From NCBI GenBank assembly GCA_947054085.1, contig CAMRVD010000001.1:24676-88675 (forward strand): DNA of 64,000 nucleotides, given 5' to 3'. Positions 22,101 through 42,798 of this stretch are shown here, piece by piece (within the stretch, counting starts at the first letter, position 1; the number at the start of each line of letters is the position of its first letter). The translations under genes were made by a program, and so were the position numbers. This DNA comes from an uncultured Clostridia bacterium (GTDB lineage: Bacteria; Bacillota; Clostridia; Christensenellales; UBA1242). The notes beneath the pieces were generated by a model. It had not been told where the DNA came from and made no database searches. It saw only the letters and a list, made by a program, of their open reading frames with translations.

Positions 22101-24860
22101 ATGGCAAAAAAATCTTTACCAAATCAAGTAAATTTAGACGACGTTTTAAATGGCGGAGCTAAGTCTTCTGCTACCAAAAAAACAACAAAAAGTTCAAAAA
22201 ATGTTGCCAAAAATAACTCTACCAATAAATCTACCACAAATAAACAAAAAACAACTAAATCAAAAACCCAAAACAAACAATACGAGCAAAGTGTAATGGA
22301 ATCACCACTTGCAAAATCAGAAAATGAAGTTGTAATTAAAGTTAATTTAGACGACGTTGCACTTGACGCAGAGCAAAAAATAGAAAAACCTAAAAAGAAA
22401 AACAAAAACGAAACCAAAAAAGACAAATCTTTAAAATCCGATAAAAAAAGAGGTTTACACATTACTTTACCGTTTTCTAAAAAACAAGAGCCCGAAGTTG
22501 TGCCAAAACGTGTTAAACGTGTACGTGCAGACTATAATGTAGGTCTTACTGGCGATCAAGTTCAAGAACGTATAACAAAAGAGCAAACAAATAAAACTCC
22601 AAACCAAAACGTAAAAACCTATAAGAGTATTTTTATAGAGAATATCTTTACATTTTTAAACATTTTGTGTTTTGGTATAGCCATAAGCTTAATGTGCGTA
22701 GGTGCGTTTAGCGATTGCTTAGGCATAATTATAATCCTAGTTAATATTTGCGTAGGTATTTTCCAAGAAATCCGTGCTAAAATTACAATCGAAAAGCTAA
22801 GCCTTTTAACCGCTCCTGCCGTAAAAGTAATGCGTGAAGGAATAGAAACCACTATCTCTACCGACGAAGTTGTTATAGACGATATTATTATGCTTAGCAC
22901 TGGTAAACAGATAGTAGCCGATAGCGTAATTGTGGAAGGCAGCCTAGAAGTTAACGAAAGTATGCTAACTGGCGAAAGTCAGCCTATAAAAAAGAATAAG
23001 GGCGATACAATTTTTGCTGGTAGCTTTGTTGTAAGCGGACACGCTTACGCAAGGGTAGAAAAAGTTGGTAAAGCCAACTACATTCAGCAACTTGCTGGCA
23101 AAGCCAAAAAATATAAAAGACCAAAATCCGAACTTTTTAGTTCGCTTAAAAATATAATTAGAGTTATTGGCTTTATAATTATCCCAGTCGGAATACTTAT
23201 GTATGTTAATAACTATATTCGCTCGGACGGAAGCATTACCACAACAATTACCGGAACTGCTGGTAGCCTTATGGGCATGATACCATCTGGAATGTTTTTG
23301 CTTTGTACTGTGTCTTTAGCGTTATCGGTAATTAAACTTGCCCGCAAAAAAGCACTTGTTCAAGACCTTTATTGCGTAGAAATGCTAGCACGCGTAAATG
23401 TGCTATGTCTAGACAAAACCGGTACTATAACAGACGGCACTATGAAAGTTTATAACTGCTTACAACTAACTGATACCGACTTTACCTTAAAACGCATAAT
23501 GGGTAGTATGTTATCGGCACTGGGCGACAACAATCAAACTAGTCAGGCACTTATTAACTATTTTGGTTACAATAAGGAACTAAAGCCTGTAACTACTCTT
23601 CCGTTTAGCTCTAGCCGTAAACTTAGTGCCGTAACTTTCGAAAATGCTGGTACATATATAATGGGTGCTCCAGAGTTTGTTATACCAAATAATCCAGACC
23701 AAAAACTTAATAATATGGTAGAACAATATTCTAAAGACGGCTATCGAGTACTGTTATTGGCTCATAGTAACTACAGCATTACCAAGGAAAATCCACCAAG
23801 TAATCGTCATGCAATAGCTCTGCTGATACTAGAAGATCGCATCCGTGACGACGCAGTAGAAACCATTAAATGGTTTAAAAATAACAATGTAAATATAAAA
23901 ATTATCTCGGGTGACAACCCACTAACCGTTTCGGAAATTGCAAAACGCGTGGGCGTAACCGGCACAGAAAATTTAATAAGCCTAGAAGGTTTAAACGAAA
24001 AACAAGTTATAGCTGCTGCAAACAAATATACAGTTTTTGGCAGAGTTACTCCAGAACAAAAAGCAATACTTGTAAAAGCTCTAAAAGCAACTGGCAACAC
24101 AGTAGCCATGACAGGCGACGGCGTAAACGATATATTGGCTCTTAAAGAAGCCGACTGCTCTATTGCTATGGCTAGCGGTAACGAAGCAGTTAGAAGTGTT
24201 TCGCATATGGTTCTGCTAGACAGTAACTTTAGCAGTATGCCTGCAACTGTACTAGAAGGCAGACGCGTTATTAATAACATGCAAAAAGCAAGTGCACTAT
24301 TTTTTATGAAAACGCTGTTTACTATAGTGCTTTCGGTTCTGGTGCTTATATGTGGACTAAGTTATCCACTAAGAACCGTAAATATGCTAATGATGGAGAT
24401 GTTTGTAATTGGAATACCGTCGTTCTTCTTGGCATTTTTACCTAACGATAAACAGGTAGAAGGTAAATTTATATTAAATCTATTTAAAAATGCCCTACCT
24501 GGTGCATTAACACTAATAATTAACACCGCTGCTGTTTATATATTCTGCTTAGTTGTAGACGGCTCGGCAGTTGCAGACAATATTGTACCAATCATAACTA
24601 CAATGCTTACCATAACAATAACATTTAGTGGACTTGCAATGCTAGCACGGCTTTGTAAGCCATTTAGAACACTAACCGCTATTATGTGGTGCGTTATGGC
24701 AGCAATCTGCTTAATATTTATTGCTACGATGCCAAGCTTCTTTGGGTTAGTAGCACTGGATTTAAGTCACACATTGTTTACTATAATTTTGGTACTTTTG
24801 TCACCATCACTAATAAACTTAATGTTTACCCTAACTGATAAAATACGATTTAAAGACTAA
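22101..24860 (+). CDS. cation-transporting P-type ATPase (HAD-IC type) with Lys/Thr/Asn-rich N-terminal extension
   Basis: TGESQP, CLDKTGTIT (phosphorylation site), MTGDGVNDILALKEAD. GGAGAG SD then ATG at 22101. Confidence 0.88.
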   Translation: MAKKSLPNQVNLDDVLNGGAKSSATKKTTKSSKNVAKNNSTNKSTTNKQKTTKSKTQNKQYEQSVMESPLAKSENEVVIKVNLDDVALDAEQKIEKPKKKNKNETKKDKSLKSDKKRGLHITLPFSKKQEPEVVPKRVKRVRADYNVGLTGDQVQERITKEQTNKTPNQNVKTYKSIFIENIFTFLNILCFGIAISLMCVGAFSDCLGIIIILVNICVGIFQEIRAKITIEKLSLLTAPAVKVMREGIETTISTDEVVIDDIIMLSTGKQIVADSVIVEGSLEVNESMLTGESQPIKKNKGDTIFAGSFVVSGHAYARVEKVGKANYIQQLAGKAKKYKRPKSELFSSLKNIIRVIGFIIIPVGILMYVNNYIRSDGSITTTITGTAGSLMGMIPSGMFLLCTVSLALSVIKLARKKALVQDLYCVEMLARVNVLCLDKTGTITDGTMKVYNCLQLTDTDFTLKRIMGSMLSALGDNNQTSQALINYFGYNKELKPVTTLPFSSSRKLSAVTFENAGTYIMGAPEFVIPNNPDQKLNNMVEQYSKDGYRVLLLAHSNYSITKENPPSNRHAIALLILEDRIRDDAVETIKWFKNNNVNIKIISGDNPLTVSEIAKRVGVTGTENLISLEGLNEKQVIAAANKYTVFGRVTPEQKAILVKALKATGNTVAMTGDGVNDILALKEADCSIAMASGNEAVRSVSHMVLLDSNFSSMPATVLEGRRVINNMQKASALFFMKTLFTIVLSVLVLICGLSYPLRTVNMLMMEMFVIGIPSFFLAFLPNDKQVEGKFILNLFKNALPGALTLIINTAAVYIFCLVVDGSAVADNIVPIITTMLTITITFSGLAMLARLCKPFRTLTAIMWCVMAAICLIFIATMPSFFGLVALDLSHTLFTIILVLLSPSLINLMFTLTDKIRFKD

Positions 24861-39406: not shown

Positions 39407-40246
39407 ATGTACTCAAATATTGCATTAAAAATATTTGCAGCCTTGTGCGAAGGTAAAATAAATTCCAGAACTATGTTTTGGAAAAGTTTTGCAGATCAAA
39501 AAATTTTTGAAAACCTTGAAATAGATTTTCAAAAATATATTAATATATTAAAATCTGCGGATTATAATTTAGTTTGCTATTTTGACGAAAACTTTCCTAT
39601 TATAGAACCAAATATCAAACCCGCCGACCGCCCATTTTTATTTGCATACAAGGGTGATATTAGTTTGCTTAGTCATGTGCAAAAAAATATCGCTGTGGTT
39701 GGGGTGCTAACCCCAGTGCAAAATATAGAACAGAGGGAGCAAAAACTTGTTGCCGACTTAGTTGCAAAAAAAGTTTAACATAGTAAGTGGACTGGCCACT
39801 GGTTACGACACTATTGCACACAAATCTTGCCTAGCATGTGGTGGTAAAACTATTGCTATTTTACCAACAACGTTCAGCAATGTTTTCCCTAAAGAAAATG
39901 CTGGTTTGGTAAACGAAATAGTTAATGCTGGTGGGCTGATTATAACCGAATATGTTAGCGAGCCAAAATCTCGTGGAGAACGGATAAATCGCTTTATTGA
40001 ACGCGATCGCTTGCAAGCCATGTTTGTAAAAGCTGTTGTTTTGGTAGCAAGTTATTTGCCCGGTGCGGGAGATAGTGGCTCTCGCCACGCTATGCAAAAG
40101 CAAAAGAATATGGCAAACATCGCCTAGTTATGTATAACCCTATAATTGACTTAGATAGTCCGCTTTTTGGACTGAATAAAAAATTGCTCAGCGAAGGCGT
40201 TGAACAAGTAACAGCAAAGAGTTTAAGGCCTTGGGAGAACCCATGA
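39407..40246 (+). pseudogene. dprA: DprA/Smf-like (SLOG fold) gene broken by two frameshifts
   Basis: …IAVVGV…SGLATGYDTIAH…TIAILPTTFSNVFPKENAGL…FIERDRLQA…GDSGSRHAM. Shift 1 is in A7 at 39766-39772, shift 2 near A4 at 40096-40099. The last fragment ends in TGA overlapping the next gene's ATG (ATGA, 40243-40246). Confidence 0.75.
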
Positions 40247-40785: not shown

Positions 40786-40819
40786 AAAATCACTCAGAAA
40801 ATTTTTCTGAGTGATTTTT
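40786..40819. terminator. bidirectional intrinsic terminator
   Basis: AAAATCACTCAGAAA-ATT-TTTCTGAGTGATTTT between the HAD gene and the tRNA-fMet 3' end. Confidence 0.8.
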
Positions 40820-40821
40820 AA

Positions 40822-40898
40822 TGGTTGCGGGAGCAGGATTTGAACCTGCGACCTTCGGGTTATGAGCCCGACGAGCTTCCGAGCTGCTCTATCCCGCG
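40822..40898 (-). tRNA. initiator tRNA-fMet (CAU), CCA encoded
   Basis: The reverse complement reads CGCGGGATAGAGCAGCTCGGAAGCTCGTCGGGCTCATAACCCGAAGGTCGCAGGTTCAAATCCTGCTCCCGCAACCA. C1/A72 mismatch and three G-C pairs closing the anticodon stem are initiator hallmarks. Confidence 0.93.
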
Positions 40899-40929
40899 AT
40901 ATTAAATTATTGACCTTGATTTATTTTTA

Positions 40930-41026
40930 CCCGAAGGTCTTCGGGTTATACTCGGGCAAGCCTCGTGGCGTTCGCTATCGCTCGGCTAAGGAGCTAACGA
41001 ACTATCCAAGCTTACTATCCCGCGAT
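40930..41026 (-). pseudogene. decayed tRNA-fMet-derived segment inside the tRNA-fMet leader
   Basis: ATCGCGGGATAG (41026-41015) and ATAACCCGAAG repeat tRNA positions. They are interrupted by …CTTAGCCGAGC…GAACGCCACGAGGCTTGCCCGAGT. No T-arm or acceptor 3' strand. Confidence 0.5.
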
Positions 41027-41050
41027 ATGCGGCTTTTGCAAAGCCCTTAT

Positions 41051-41079
41051 ATAATATAGCAATATTTAAATATTGTCAA
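41051..41079 (-). promoter_or_regulatory. consensus-like sigma-A promoter for the tRNA-fMet transcript
   Basis: - strand TTGACA (41079-41074), 17 nt, TATTAT (41056-41051). Confidence 0.7.
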
Positions 41080-41128
41080 GGTTATTTAAAAATAAAATAA
41101 TATTTTTTATCTAACATTTTTAAAAAGG

Positions 41129-41157
41129 TTGACAAATGTCTTTTTTTATACTATTAT
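41129..41157 (+). promoter_or_regulatory. consensus-like sigma-A promoter for the tRNA-Met/tRNA-Glu transcript
   Basis: TTGACA (41129-41134), 17 nt, TATTAT (41152-41157). Confidence 0.7.
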
Positions 41158-41264
41158 ACAAAAGCATAAACTTTAAGTTTTGTATTTGTAGCTGCTTAGC
41201 GATAGTATTGCTAGAGTGACTGATTTGTGCCCTGTAGGGTCTACTTGGTACAAATTTACATAAT

Positions 41265-41372
41265 ATTGTGGCGGCTTTGTACAAGATTATTAAAGCATCT
41301 GGTTCCTCAGCCGAAGCACAAAAAGTGCCGAACGCCACGAGGGCTTGCCCAAGTATAACTAGTAGGTCGTAG
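41265..41372 (+). pseudogene. decayed tRNA-Met-derived segment inside the tRNA-Met leader
   Basis: ATTGTGGCGGCTT (= 41413-41425), CTGGTTC, then …CTCAGCCGAAGC…GAACGCCACGAGGGCTTGCCCAAGT, then ATAACTAGTAGGTCGTAG (cf. ATACCCAGTAGGTCGTAG in the tRNA). Confidence 0.5.
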
Positions 41373-41417
41373 AACTACTGGGGAAATGGTTTACTTAGGG
41401 TGCAATTTAATAATTGT

Positions 41418-41494
41418 GGCGGCTTAGCTCAGTTGGCTAGAGCGCCTGGTTCATACCCAGTAGGTCGTAGGTTCAAATCCCACAGCCGCTACCA
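41418..41494 (+). tRNA. tRNA-Met (CAU), elongator type, CCA encoded
   Basis: GGCGGCTTAGCTCAGTTGGCTAGAGCGCCTGGTTCATACCCAGTAGGTCGTAGGTTCAAATCCCACAGCCGCTACCA. The anticodon loop TTCATAC resembles elongator Met; a tRNA-Ile2 (lysidine) identity cannot be excluded. One A/C mismatch in the T-stem. Confidence 0.85.
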
Positions 41495-41508
41495 CAATCT
41501 TTTAATAT

Positions 41509-41583
41509 GGTCCCATGGTCAAGCGGTTAAGACATCGCCCTTTCACGGCGGTAACAGGGGTTCGATTCCCCTTGGGACTACCA
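41509..41583 (+). tRNA. tRNA-Glu (UUC), CCA encoded
   Basis: GGTCCCATGGTCAAGCGGTTAAGACATCGCCCTTTCACGGCGGTAACAGGGGTTCGATTCCCCTTGGGACTACCA. Confidence 0.92.
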
Positions 41584-41587
41584 AAAC

Positions 41588-41616
41588 AAAAGCTGCCTTT
41601 TGGCAGCTTTTTGTTT
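41588..41616 (+). terminator. intrinsic terminator after tRNA-Glu
   Basis: AAAGCTGCC-TTTT-GGCAGCTTTTTGTTTT. Confidence 0.8.
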
Positions 41617-41868
41617 TGTCCTAAATAAGCGAACAGCAACAAGGTTGCAAGGCACATAGCCGAGCAACTTACAGTGTCCCCCCCCCCAACGAGTTTTAAA
41701 ATCAAACTTTTTGAGGAGAGGCACTTATGTTGTAAGCTGATATTTACGTAAAGCAAACCGAAACAAAACCATAAGTGTGAAGACGCCACAAAGAATGGAC
41801 TCAAGTATAACATAAAAAGTTGAGGTAAAATTAATAAAGCCAACTACACTAGTTGACTTTTTATTTTA

Positions 41869-42153
41869 TTATTTTGTTGGTACATAAATTTTATCTCCGG
41901 GCTGAGCAAGGCCTAATTCCTCACGGGCTTGTTGCTCTAAATAGCTGCCGGTTTCCTGAAGTTTAATGTTGTTTTCTAATTGCTTTTGCTGTTGGGTTAA
42001 CGCTATAGACATTTGATCTAATTTTTTAGACTTAGCTTTAAGCACGCCAATTTTTATACACTGATAACTTATTATGCACACAGCGCATAACACAAAAGTT
42101 GTAACCAAAATTGTTGTTAATTTTACTACTCTTTTAAATTTTTGTGGTGTCAT
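41869..42153 (-). CDS. divIC: septum formation initiator (DivIC/FtsB family)
   Basis: N-terminal TM, coiled coil, C-terminal …EEQAREELGLAQPGDKIYV. yabP-yabQ-divIC synteny. Confidence 0.72.
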   Translation of the reverse strand: MTPQKFKRVVKLTTILVTTFVLCAVCIISYQCIKIGVLKAKSKKLDQMSIALTQQQKQLENNIKLQETGSYLEQQAREELGLAQPGDKIYVPTK

Positions 42154-42156
42154 AAT

Positions 42157-42522
42157 TTACCTTAATAATTTACTGCCAAATTTGGTAGTTTTTATTTTGC
42201 TAACAGCTTTAGCAAAAACATTATACACCATATTATAAAATTTTGTAAAGAAAAATCCAATAGAAATTTGTTCTAAAATTATTCCAAGTATGCTTGCAAA
42301 AATTGTGTAAAAAAACACTCTGCCGTTTGTATACTTAAGCAAAAAAACGCAAAAACAAGTACCGATCAAGCTAAAATATATAAATTTTACAACATTTACA
42401 ATCCAAATATTGTTTTTTGTTATAAGTTTTGTAAACTTACAAACTTCGTATAAAAAGCCAAAGCTTAAACCCAAAACTAAAAACCTTAAAAATAAAATTC
42501 CGCTAAATAAACTTTCGAACAT
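42157..42522 (-). CDS. yabQ: spore cortex biosynthesis protein YabQ-like membrane protein
   Basis: Small polytopic membrane ORF located between yabP and divIC as in Bacillus. Called mainly from synteny. Confidence 0.55.
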   Translation of the reverse strand: MFESLFSGILFLRFLVLGLSFGFLYEVCKFTKLITKNNIWIVNVVKFIYFSLIGTCFCVFLLKYTNGRVFFYTIFASILGIILEQISIGFFFTKFYNMVYNVFAKAVSKIKTTKFGSKLLR

Positions 42523-42525
42523 AAA

Positions 42526-42798
42526 CTATTTAAACAACTTTTTAAAGAAATTTTTGCTACTTAGTGTATTGTATTTTATACTATTAACTAAGCCCGATAT
42601 AATCAGTAACTTTTCTTCTGGGGATAGTTTTTCTACCTTTAAATTCTCGCCCGAAATTTCCATTTGACCATCGTAAAGCTTAATGTATACGCCGCCTTGG
42701 GTTGCAGAAAGCACTTCTTGTACGCCGGTAATTATTGTTTTGCTTCGATTTTCCATAGTTACGTTGTGTTGAGGTTTTATTGTTTGTTTAGTTTCCAT
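42526..42798 (-). CDS. yabP: sporulation protein YabP
   Basis: …HNVTMENRSKTIITGVQEVLSATQGGVYIKL…MEISGENLKVEKLSPEEKLLIISG matches the YabP/YqfC pattern. Confidence 0.78.
   Translation of the reverse strand: METKQTIKPQHNVTMENRSKTIITGVQEVLSATQGGVYIKLYDGQMEISGENLKVEKLSPEEKLLIISGLVNSIKYNTLSSKNFFKKLFK

Follow-up and report, generated by a model that had tools for sequence, protein, structure and literature searches.

Long leaders of two divergent tRNA units in an uncultured Clostridia bacterium as probable scars of a dispersed hairpin module

Introduction

The tRNA-linked repeats (TLRs) of Escherichia coli are gene-less, co-transcribed units of tRNA and rRNA operons with no known general function (Egan and Landy 1978, Rudd 1999; review PMC8144298), and each ends in 18-19 bp identical to the 3' end of the upstream gene (PMC8144298). 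The Ssn-related motifs (NTS/SRM) were described with the single-strand nuclease SsnA, which cleaves a few nucleotides (nt) upstream of the NTS, a sequence of the form CGTC-ATTCCC...GGGAAT-C (PMC11893778). Here we examine two divergent tRNA units, one encoding tRNA-fMet and the other tRNA-Met and tRNA-Glu, in a 64,000-nt stretch of DNA (the window; positions 24,676 to 88,675 of contig CAMRVD010000001.1, assembly GCA_947054085.1) from an uncultured Clostridia bacterium, together with a short hairpin repeat, termed module M, that is present in the leaders of both units. We propose that each long leader is probably a scar, that is, a truncated spare 5' part of the tRNA carrying one copy of M, a gene-less hairpin module of a family dispersed among the Clostridia.

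Three further kinds of element serve for comparison. IS200/IS605-type elements insert as single-stranded DNA beside a fixed short word and without target duplication. Rickettsia palindromic elements are gene-less insertions of ~100-150 bp that are tolerated inside working genes, RNA genes included, without spare fragments. The anticodon loop and the T loop are the two classic sublocations of integrases in tRNA genes.

Anatomy of the two leaders

The features of the two units, obtained from repeat analysis and from pairwise alignment of the leaders against the tRNA genes of the same genome, are given below in the order of transcription. Genomes (G), loci (L) and contigs (C) carry our own numbers.

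41051..41079, minus strand: promoter of the fMet unit, TTGACA-17-TATTAT (motif scan; kept in G001 and G004)
41025..41050, minus strand: old short leader with a small hairpin, resembling the G004 leader (sequence reading, relatives)
40991..41024, minus strand: spare copy of tRNA-fMet nt 1-34 (74% identity overall; first 10 nt and 4 upstream nt identical to the gene)
40950..40990, minus strand: module M, 41 nt, between C34 and A35 of the spare tRNA-fMet (repeat analysis, fuzzy search)
40929..40949, minus strand: tRNA-fMet nt 35-45 (11/11 identical), then their own reverse complement, giving a fold-back hairpin (repeat analysis, alignment)
40899..40928, minus strand: A+T-rich spacer of 30 nt from the putative scar to the intact tRNA-fMet; the 4 nt preceding the tRNA also precede the spare copy
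40822..40898, minus strand: intact initiator tRNA-fMet (CAU) (ARAGORN and Rfam)
41129..41157, plus strand: promoter of the Met-Glu unit, TTGACA-17-TATTAT (motif scan; kept in G001 and G003)
41190..41266, plus strand: psi1, a decayed whole tRNA-Met copy with no module (69% identity over 72 columns)
41270..41305, plus strand: psi2, spare copy of tRNA-Met nt 1-36 (69% identity overall)
41306..41354, plus strand: module M, 49 nt, between C34 and A35 of psi2 (repeat analysis, fuzzy search)
41355..41383, plus strand: tRNA-Met nt 35-52 (16/18 identical), then a complementary stretch, giving a fold-back hairpin (repeat analysis, alignment)
41384..41417, plus strand: spacer before the intact tRNA-Met (sequence reading)
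41418..41494, plus strand: intact tRNA-Met (CAU) (ARAGORN and Rfam)
41509..41583, plus strand: tRNA-Glu (UUC) (ARAGORN and Rfam)

An earlier first-pass annotation of the window had reported an inverted repeat of 40945-40974 versus 41329-41359 in the equivalent place of both leaders. The repeat is confirmed at 30 versus 31 nt, its two differences being one mismatch and a 1-nt indel, and was recovered in our repeat analysis as two abutting arms, one of 18 nt (94% identity) and one of 14 nt (100% identity). The two M copies read as an inverted repeat because M is sense to the tRNA in both of the divergent genes. The shared element does occupy the same spot on the two sides, but that spot is C34|A35, in the anticodon of decayed spare tRNA copies. 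The start of psi2 is identical to the gene over 13 nt (41265-41277; 5 upstream nt and tRNA nt 1-8), and psi1 was not called as a tRNA by the tRNA searches.

Both TTGACA-17-TATTAT sites score 11/12 and are the top two promoter-like sites of the region, in agreement with the divergent promoters first proposed for the locus; the order and positions of tRNA-fMet, tRNA-Met and tRNA-Glu were likewise reproduced. Inside both leaders the same scan detected neither a terminator nor any further promoter-like site in the proper orientation, and the leaders are therefore ~146 nt (minus strand) and ~254 nt (plus strand) long, unusually long as had been claimed. The C1/A72 mismatch and the GGG/CCC anticodon stem, read from the sequence, mark the minus-strand CAU tRNA as the initiator, which is single-copy in this genome. 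The tRNA-Met at 41418-41494 is presumably the elongator, given its likeness to the elongator tRNA-Met of Firmicutes.

Comparison with three genomes of the same genus (G001, G003 and G004) indicates how the leaders arose. The promoter hexamers and the 17-nt spacing are kept before the same tRNAs while the spacer sequences differ, which argues that the promoters are real. In these congeners the leaders are only ~27-30 nt long (the whole divergent locus in G001, the Met-Glu unit in G003 and the fMet unit in G004), and since the same promoters are there combined with such short leaders, the long leaders are derived. The first-pass annotation had implied that the leaders are conserved, with a purpose beyond RNase P processing, and had named as evidence against this the absence of the repeat from relatives with otherwise identical loci; this is what G001, G003 and G004 display, and the regulatory-leader reading is not supported. 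G004 does hold a copy of M in an anticodon-arm fragment of tRNA-fMet, but downstream of the gene.

A dispersed family of hairpin modules

In its fuller copies M follows the plan CTCAGCCGAG - hairpin - CGAACGCCACGAG - second hairpin - GCGAGT, with ends CTCAGCC... and ...GCGAGT. The length is 37-57 nt, and within the family of this genome some copies reach 73-115 nt through an expanded second hairpin. A fuzzy search of the genome of the window returned nine matches, compared with none in a reversed-genome control, and membership of this family places the inverted repeat of the two leaders far beyond chance. Seven of the nine are no more than 214 nt from a tRNA and share its strand (Met, fMet, Cys (twice), Gly(CCC), Gly(UCC) and Trp), sequence within that distance of a tRNA amounting to ~1.6% of the genome by an arithmetic estimate. 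A tenth, degenerate copy adjoins tRNA-Leu(CAG).

A total of 62 distinct instances were found in public genomes of the Clostridia/Christensenellales type, at 4-12 copies per genome, the carriers among public records being Clostridia, Christensenellaceae and Pumilibacter. The distribution is patchy, with the exact word pattern of M present in 6 of the 301 genomes of the family and in 3 of the 121 of the order. Matches to the pattern in high-G+C sequence mostly lack the module end and are probably due to chance, and a scan of viral contigs for M words gave no matches. Rfam searches returned only tRNAs at E ≤ 10 for the window region, and nothing but tRNAs at E ≤ 0.5 or 0.1 for nine loci with fuller M copies. 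Literature searches by theme and by 12-nt word retrieved no description of M.

The first hairpin is fully paired in 24 of 43 distinct variants, compared with 8% of shuffles, and is built from 14 different stems with loops that are mostly GAA, GCA or GTA; the second is paired in 28 of 35 variants, compared with 29% of shuffles. These patterns point to selection on the hairpins. M is a small hairpin element that targets tRNA loops and appears to be undescribed. Other identities were considered during sequence reading: M as a T-box, a piece of tmRNA, a hammerhead or a class II tRNA fragment was dropped, and a three-way-junction RNA closed by the helix GGGAAT/ATTCCC was replaced by the fold-back reading.

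Insertion sites and target word

The flanks of the 62 instances were searched by BLAST, which placed 16 in sense to tRNA sequence, eight in antisense and four in mixed arrangement. A further 12 instances, identified by a match of the right flank, lie within non-tRNA hairpin repeats of the form TGTC^ATTGCGAG...GCAATC (^ marks the junction), and of the other 22, many are flanked by T-loop-like sequence, GGTTCG^ATTCC. Within tRNA sequence M occupies the D loop (tRNA-Ser, L105), the anticodon loop (tRNA-fMet in at least G000, G004 and L149; tRNA-Met in G000 and L152; tRNA-Ile in L078 and G164), the T loop (tRNAs for Glu, Gly, Thr, Arg and Cys) and the position after nt 5 of the acceptor stem (tRNA-Arg(ACG) at L102, L086 and L109).

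In-silico deletion of M yields a complete tRNA in 5 of 56 instances, which implies that insertion adds only M, with no target duplication. The junction word, Y-S^A-T-W on M's own strand, does not change with the host feature or with the orientation of that feature. Y occupies position -2 in 50 of 50 junctions, S position -1 in 48, T position +2 in 42 and W position +3 in 45, with the qualification that +1 (A) and +2 (T or C) were preset by the search pattern. Word-specific insertion regardless of orientation, with non-tRNA repeats included, argues for an event at the DNA level and against an intron. A tRNA intron would, moreover, interrupt a complete, sense and functional host gene, whereas the window copies of M sit in truncated, decayed copies, antisense copies exist and the size is far below that of a group I intron.

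Where an intact tRNA is nearby, M was always found in a spare fragment at the loci examined. For sites near the 5' end of the tRNA, the fragment lies upstream of the gene and ends 11-18 nt past M (G000 fMet 11, G000 Met 18, L105 11, L152 11, G004 13, L149 12 and L078 ~15 nt). For T-loop sites the fragment lies downstream, begins 5-8 nt before M and continues to the end of the tRNA, including its final 19 nt. In many cases the short flank forms one half of a fold-back hairpin, as in both window copies, in copy 1 on C6 and at C11:24219 of the same genome, and in G279, G211, G076, L088 and L144.

Some loci hold arrays of such units. L105 has six, with M in the D loop of tRNA-Ser fragments, preceding the intact gene, and L102 has three to four. 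In the fourth tRNA-Arg(ACG) unit of L102 (471-750; G319:C38), M after nt 5 is followed by ~230 nt of unrelated, structured-looking sequence and then by the 3' acceptor end and CCA. Every tRNA-Arg(ACG) copy visible in the G319 assembly is interrupted, the first being cut by the contig end. At L033:1440-1900 (G279), three tandem units of the T-loop type follow tRNA-Thr, the middle one with a terminator-like hairpin in place of the M core, and the long second hairpins of this locus carry short direct repeats (CTTAGTCTAT-like) that were found in G211 too.

Search for a mobiliser

A full-length parent, in which the ends of M would enclose a gene, was sought and none was found: L149 proved to be a further array of fMet units, and the third L033 copy continues into a housekeeping methyltransferase gene. 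The M-rich genomes hold IS200 copies, RAYT-like genes and one SsnA-like gene, none of which consistently adjoins M. The IS200 copies of G317, G318 and G320 have unrelated end hairpins and no M words. Pumilibacter intestinalis (G317) encodes a RAYT-like protein (NF047646, E = 1e-7, below the cut-off); M does not flank its homologues in G320, G321 or G401. A GIY-YIG gene of the SsnA type (99 aa, one domain) is present in the same genome at ~190 nt from a copy of M, surrounded by TGTC-ATTGCGAG repeats, and G317 is the only genome with an ssnA-like gene beside M.

The RAYT-like gene of G317 (L163:1230-2340) has inverted pairs of TGTC-ATTGCGAG...GCAATC repeats, rather than M, to either side. This is the classic REP/RAYT layout, yet the repeats are of Ssn-related design.

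Proposed origin of the scars

Based on these observations we propose that M inserts at Y-S^A-T-W without target duplication, preferring the D, anticodon and T loops of tRNAs and hairpin repeats of the Ssn type. Its movement would take place in DNA, probably in single-stranded form, with the mobilising activity supplied in trans. Where the short tRNA flank ends in a fold-back, it may be the trace of a repaired break, the repair having preserved or restored an intact tRNA next to the invaded copy. Breakpoints lie close to M at many independent loci, which suggests that insertion and partial duplication are coupled, possibly through a break near the site whose repair uses template switching or priming from a fold-back. 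It may also be that no other rearrangements survive, the tRNAs being single-copy and essential.

The intact tRNAs would then be transcribed through the scar from the old promoters and freed by RNase P. For tRNA-fMet, expression from the old promoter through the scar would be obligatory, since the gene is single-copy. The hairpins that the scar adds to the precursor, together with a second 5' strand of the acceptor stem, would evidently be tolerated.

A broader reading, which we offer tentatively and hold to be somewhat doubtful, is that M and its look-alikes form a distinct kind of tRNA-gene parasite. These would be tiny single-stranded DNA hairpins that recognise loop-plus-stem shapes (Y-S^A-T-W), whose invasion is resolved by fold-back or template-switch repair leaving a capped fragment beside a rebuilt tRNA, and the TLRs of E. 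coli, long unexplained, would be ancient traces of that process.

In small gut-bacterial genomes, tRNA leaders and trailers that are long or odd can mimic regulatory RNAs, and reading them as scars guards against misannotation. A module of 40-55 nt with a precise 5-nt target, regularly lying in a truncated, fold-back-capped gene copy beside the intact gene, points to an undescribed survival route for essential single-copy RNA genes. M scars also offer a testable origin for TLRs, and if the mobiliser is a site- and structure-specific enzyme acting on single-stranded DNA, it could serve as a tool.

Weight of the evidence and rival explanations

Several results weigh against the scar interpretation. 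Identity between the spare copies and their genes is only 69-74%, yet it reaches 100% over the first 8-10 nt and the 4-5 nt upstream; simple duplication followed by decay leaves such a mosaic unexplained. When M was folded as DNA under the nearest-neighbour model it did not outperform shuffles (z -0.9 to +0.8), and since folding energies give no signal the structural claim is carried by covariation. Mini-hairpins of the C-GNA-G type and tandem G.A pairs in C-GA-G context are unusually stable in single-stranded DNA, and standard energy rules give neither of them credit. No Y1 transposase (PF01797) and no RAYT-like gene were found in the genome of the window (94.7% complete), where GIY-YIG is represented by UvrC only; because no candidate enzyme was found there, its M copies are probably relics. 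All-against-all clustering of the open reading frames around M in 49 loci yielded no recurrent protein family. Finally, the M copies of this genome all share the orientation of the neighbouring tRNA and are probably transcribed together with it, which would also fit a role as RNA.

Such a role is the likeliest of the alternatives. The M-bearing leader would be a functional co-transcribed RNA (a regulator of processing or expression, an anticodon-arm decoy or a stable small RNA freed by RNase P), kept by selection, with its spread being secondary. Besides the uniform sense orientation near tRNAs in this genome, the leaders contain neither promoter nor terminator and so must be part of the transcripts of essential single-copy tRNAs, the hairpins of M co-vary, and the TLRs in rRNA operons of E. 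coli yield small RNAs (PMC8144298). We nevertheless regard this explanation as unlikely, given that congeners lack the element at the same locus and its distribution is patchy, that its position shifts between the D, anticodon and T loops and the acceptor stem with no match in Rfam, and that eight instances are antisense to tRNA sequence and 12 more lie in non-tRNA hairpin repeats. Those antisense and non-tRNA insertions also obey the same word on M's own strand, which speaks against a spread of M as RNA by intron-like reverse-splicing into exposed pre-tRNA loops, with partial cDNAs reaching from the transcript end to just past M being put back beside the gene. That route would account for insertion into loops that are exposed in the folded tRNA, for the 29 nt of upstream tRNA flank in each L105 unit, which stops 11 nt past M, and for the continuation of T-loop units to the tRNA 3' end and terminator. 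No recurrent reverse transcriptase was found nearby in the 49 loci, however, and the intact tRNA-fMet of the window does not repeat the ancestral leader, so that we give this route only a slight chance.

Equally slim, in our judgement, are the prospects of the scars being attachment-site (att) remnants of elements with tyrosine integrases (islands, prophages or integrase-less, cis-mobilisable derivatives) that target anticodon and T loops and accrete. The junctions of M do fall in these classic sublocations, the T-loop copies finish with the tRNA's final 19 nt, some form tandem arrays (L033), and long variants carry short direct repeats resembling arm sites. The window, however, repeats 5' fragments upstream of the gene, neither an integrase nor any other recurrent gene adjoins M, and viral contigs gave no matches. 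M further occupies the D loop and the acceptor stem, lies antisense to some tRNAs and occurs in non-tRNA repeats, and its core is only 37-57 nt, with conserved ends abutting tRNA sequence. We retain the reading of the leaders as scars of a DNA-level hairpin module as the probable one.

Surroundings of the locus and other observations in the genome

Both tRNA units are followed by a terminator hairpin, and a weak third M-like stretch lies beyond tRNA-Glu.

40786..40818, minus strand: terminator hairpin 3' of tRNA-fMet (15-pair stem, then a T run)
41588..41611, plus strand: terminator hairpin 3' of tRNA-Glu (hairpin prediction)
41628..41695, plus strand: possible decayed third M-like stretch 3' of tRNA-Glu, weak (repeat analysis; run of ~10 C inside)

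The homopolymer of ~10 C (41679-41688), just 3' of tRNA-Glu, could be slippage-prone or a weak point of the assembly. The dprA gene (DNA_processg_A) is split into two overlapping open reading frames at 39407-40127 (plus strand), covering profile positions 3-74 and 72-174, with a frameshift near 39770 that reflects either a pseudogene or a sequencing error. A yabP-yabQ-divIC trio of sporulation and division genes lies at 41869-42798 (minus strand) and places the organism, whose genome is 1.19 Mb with 33% G+C, among Firmicutes derived from spore formers.

ARAGORN detected 38 tRNAs and no tmRNA gene in the 94.7%-complete assembly. At C81:630-1400 a ~370-nt unit recurs after tRNA-Gln(UUG) and after tRNA-Gln(CUG), a tandem duplication of gene and trailer with no M words. 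Contigs C54 and C55 carry near-identical Pro-Met-Asp tRNA clusters, followed by Thr-Tyr-Phe in one order and Phe-Thr-Tyr in the other; this divergence may reflect strain mixture or misassembly (assembly contamination 4.7%).

Comparison with known systems

Judged by analogy of layout, the nearest published counterpart of the M units is the TLR of E. coli. Both are gene-less and repeat a piece of the neighbouring gene, and the TLR boundary, after T-loop position 57, coincides with that of M in the T loop. Elsewhere in the genome of the window, T-loop copies of M repeat 19 nt of the gene 3' end in TLR-like fashion, whereas the window copies differ in that they repeat the 5' part of the gene upstream of it, cut at the anticodon. 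The conserved words and hairpins of M are not reported for TLRs.

M shares with SRM the nature of a short hairpin repeat that would act as single-stranded DNA, and it interrupts repeats of the CGTC/TGTC-ATT...AAT-C design; the T loop and 3' stem of a tRNA, furthermore, mimic the 5' half of the NTS. It has, however, neither the words nor the design of SRM, the SsnA cut site is not at the M junction, and the genome of the window lacks a small GIY-YIG gene. We know of no joining activity of Ssn.

Among transposable elements, M resembles the miniature IS200/IS605 elements (palindrome-associated transposable elements, PATEs) in its fixed word, hairpins and lack of target duplication, but its ends are not shared with any TnpA-encoding full-length element found. 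Like elements of the REP/REPIN-RAYT system it is small, non-autonomous and hairpin-forming; it differs from them in having no GTAG/CGTC end tag, in its low copy number of 4-12 per genome and in not flanking RAYT-like genes. Integrase att scars likewise place fragments of a tRNA next to an intact one, and their junctions also fall in the anticodon or T loop, whereas M has no integrase, repeats 5' fragments, occurs in both orientations and occupies non-tRNA sites. With the Rickettsia palindromic elements M has in common that it is short, palindromic, gene-less and located inside genes, but the copies of M lie in truncated spare copies beside the intact gene.

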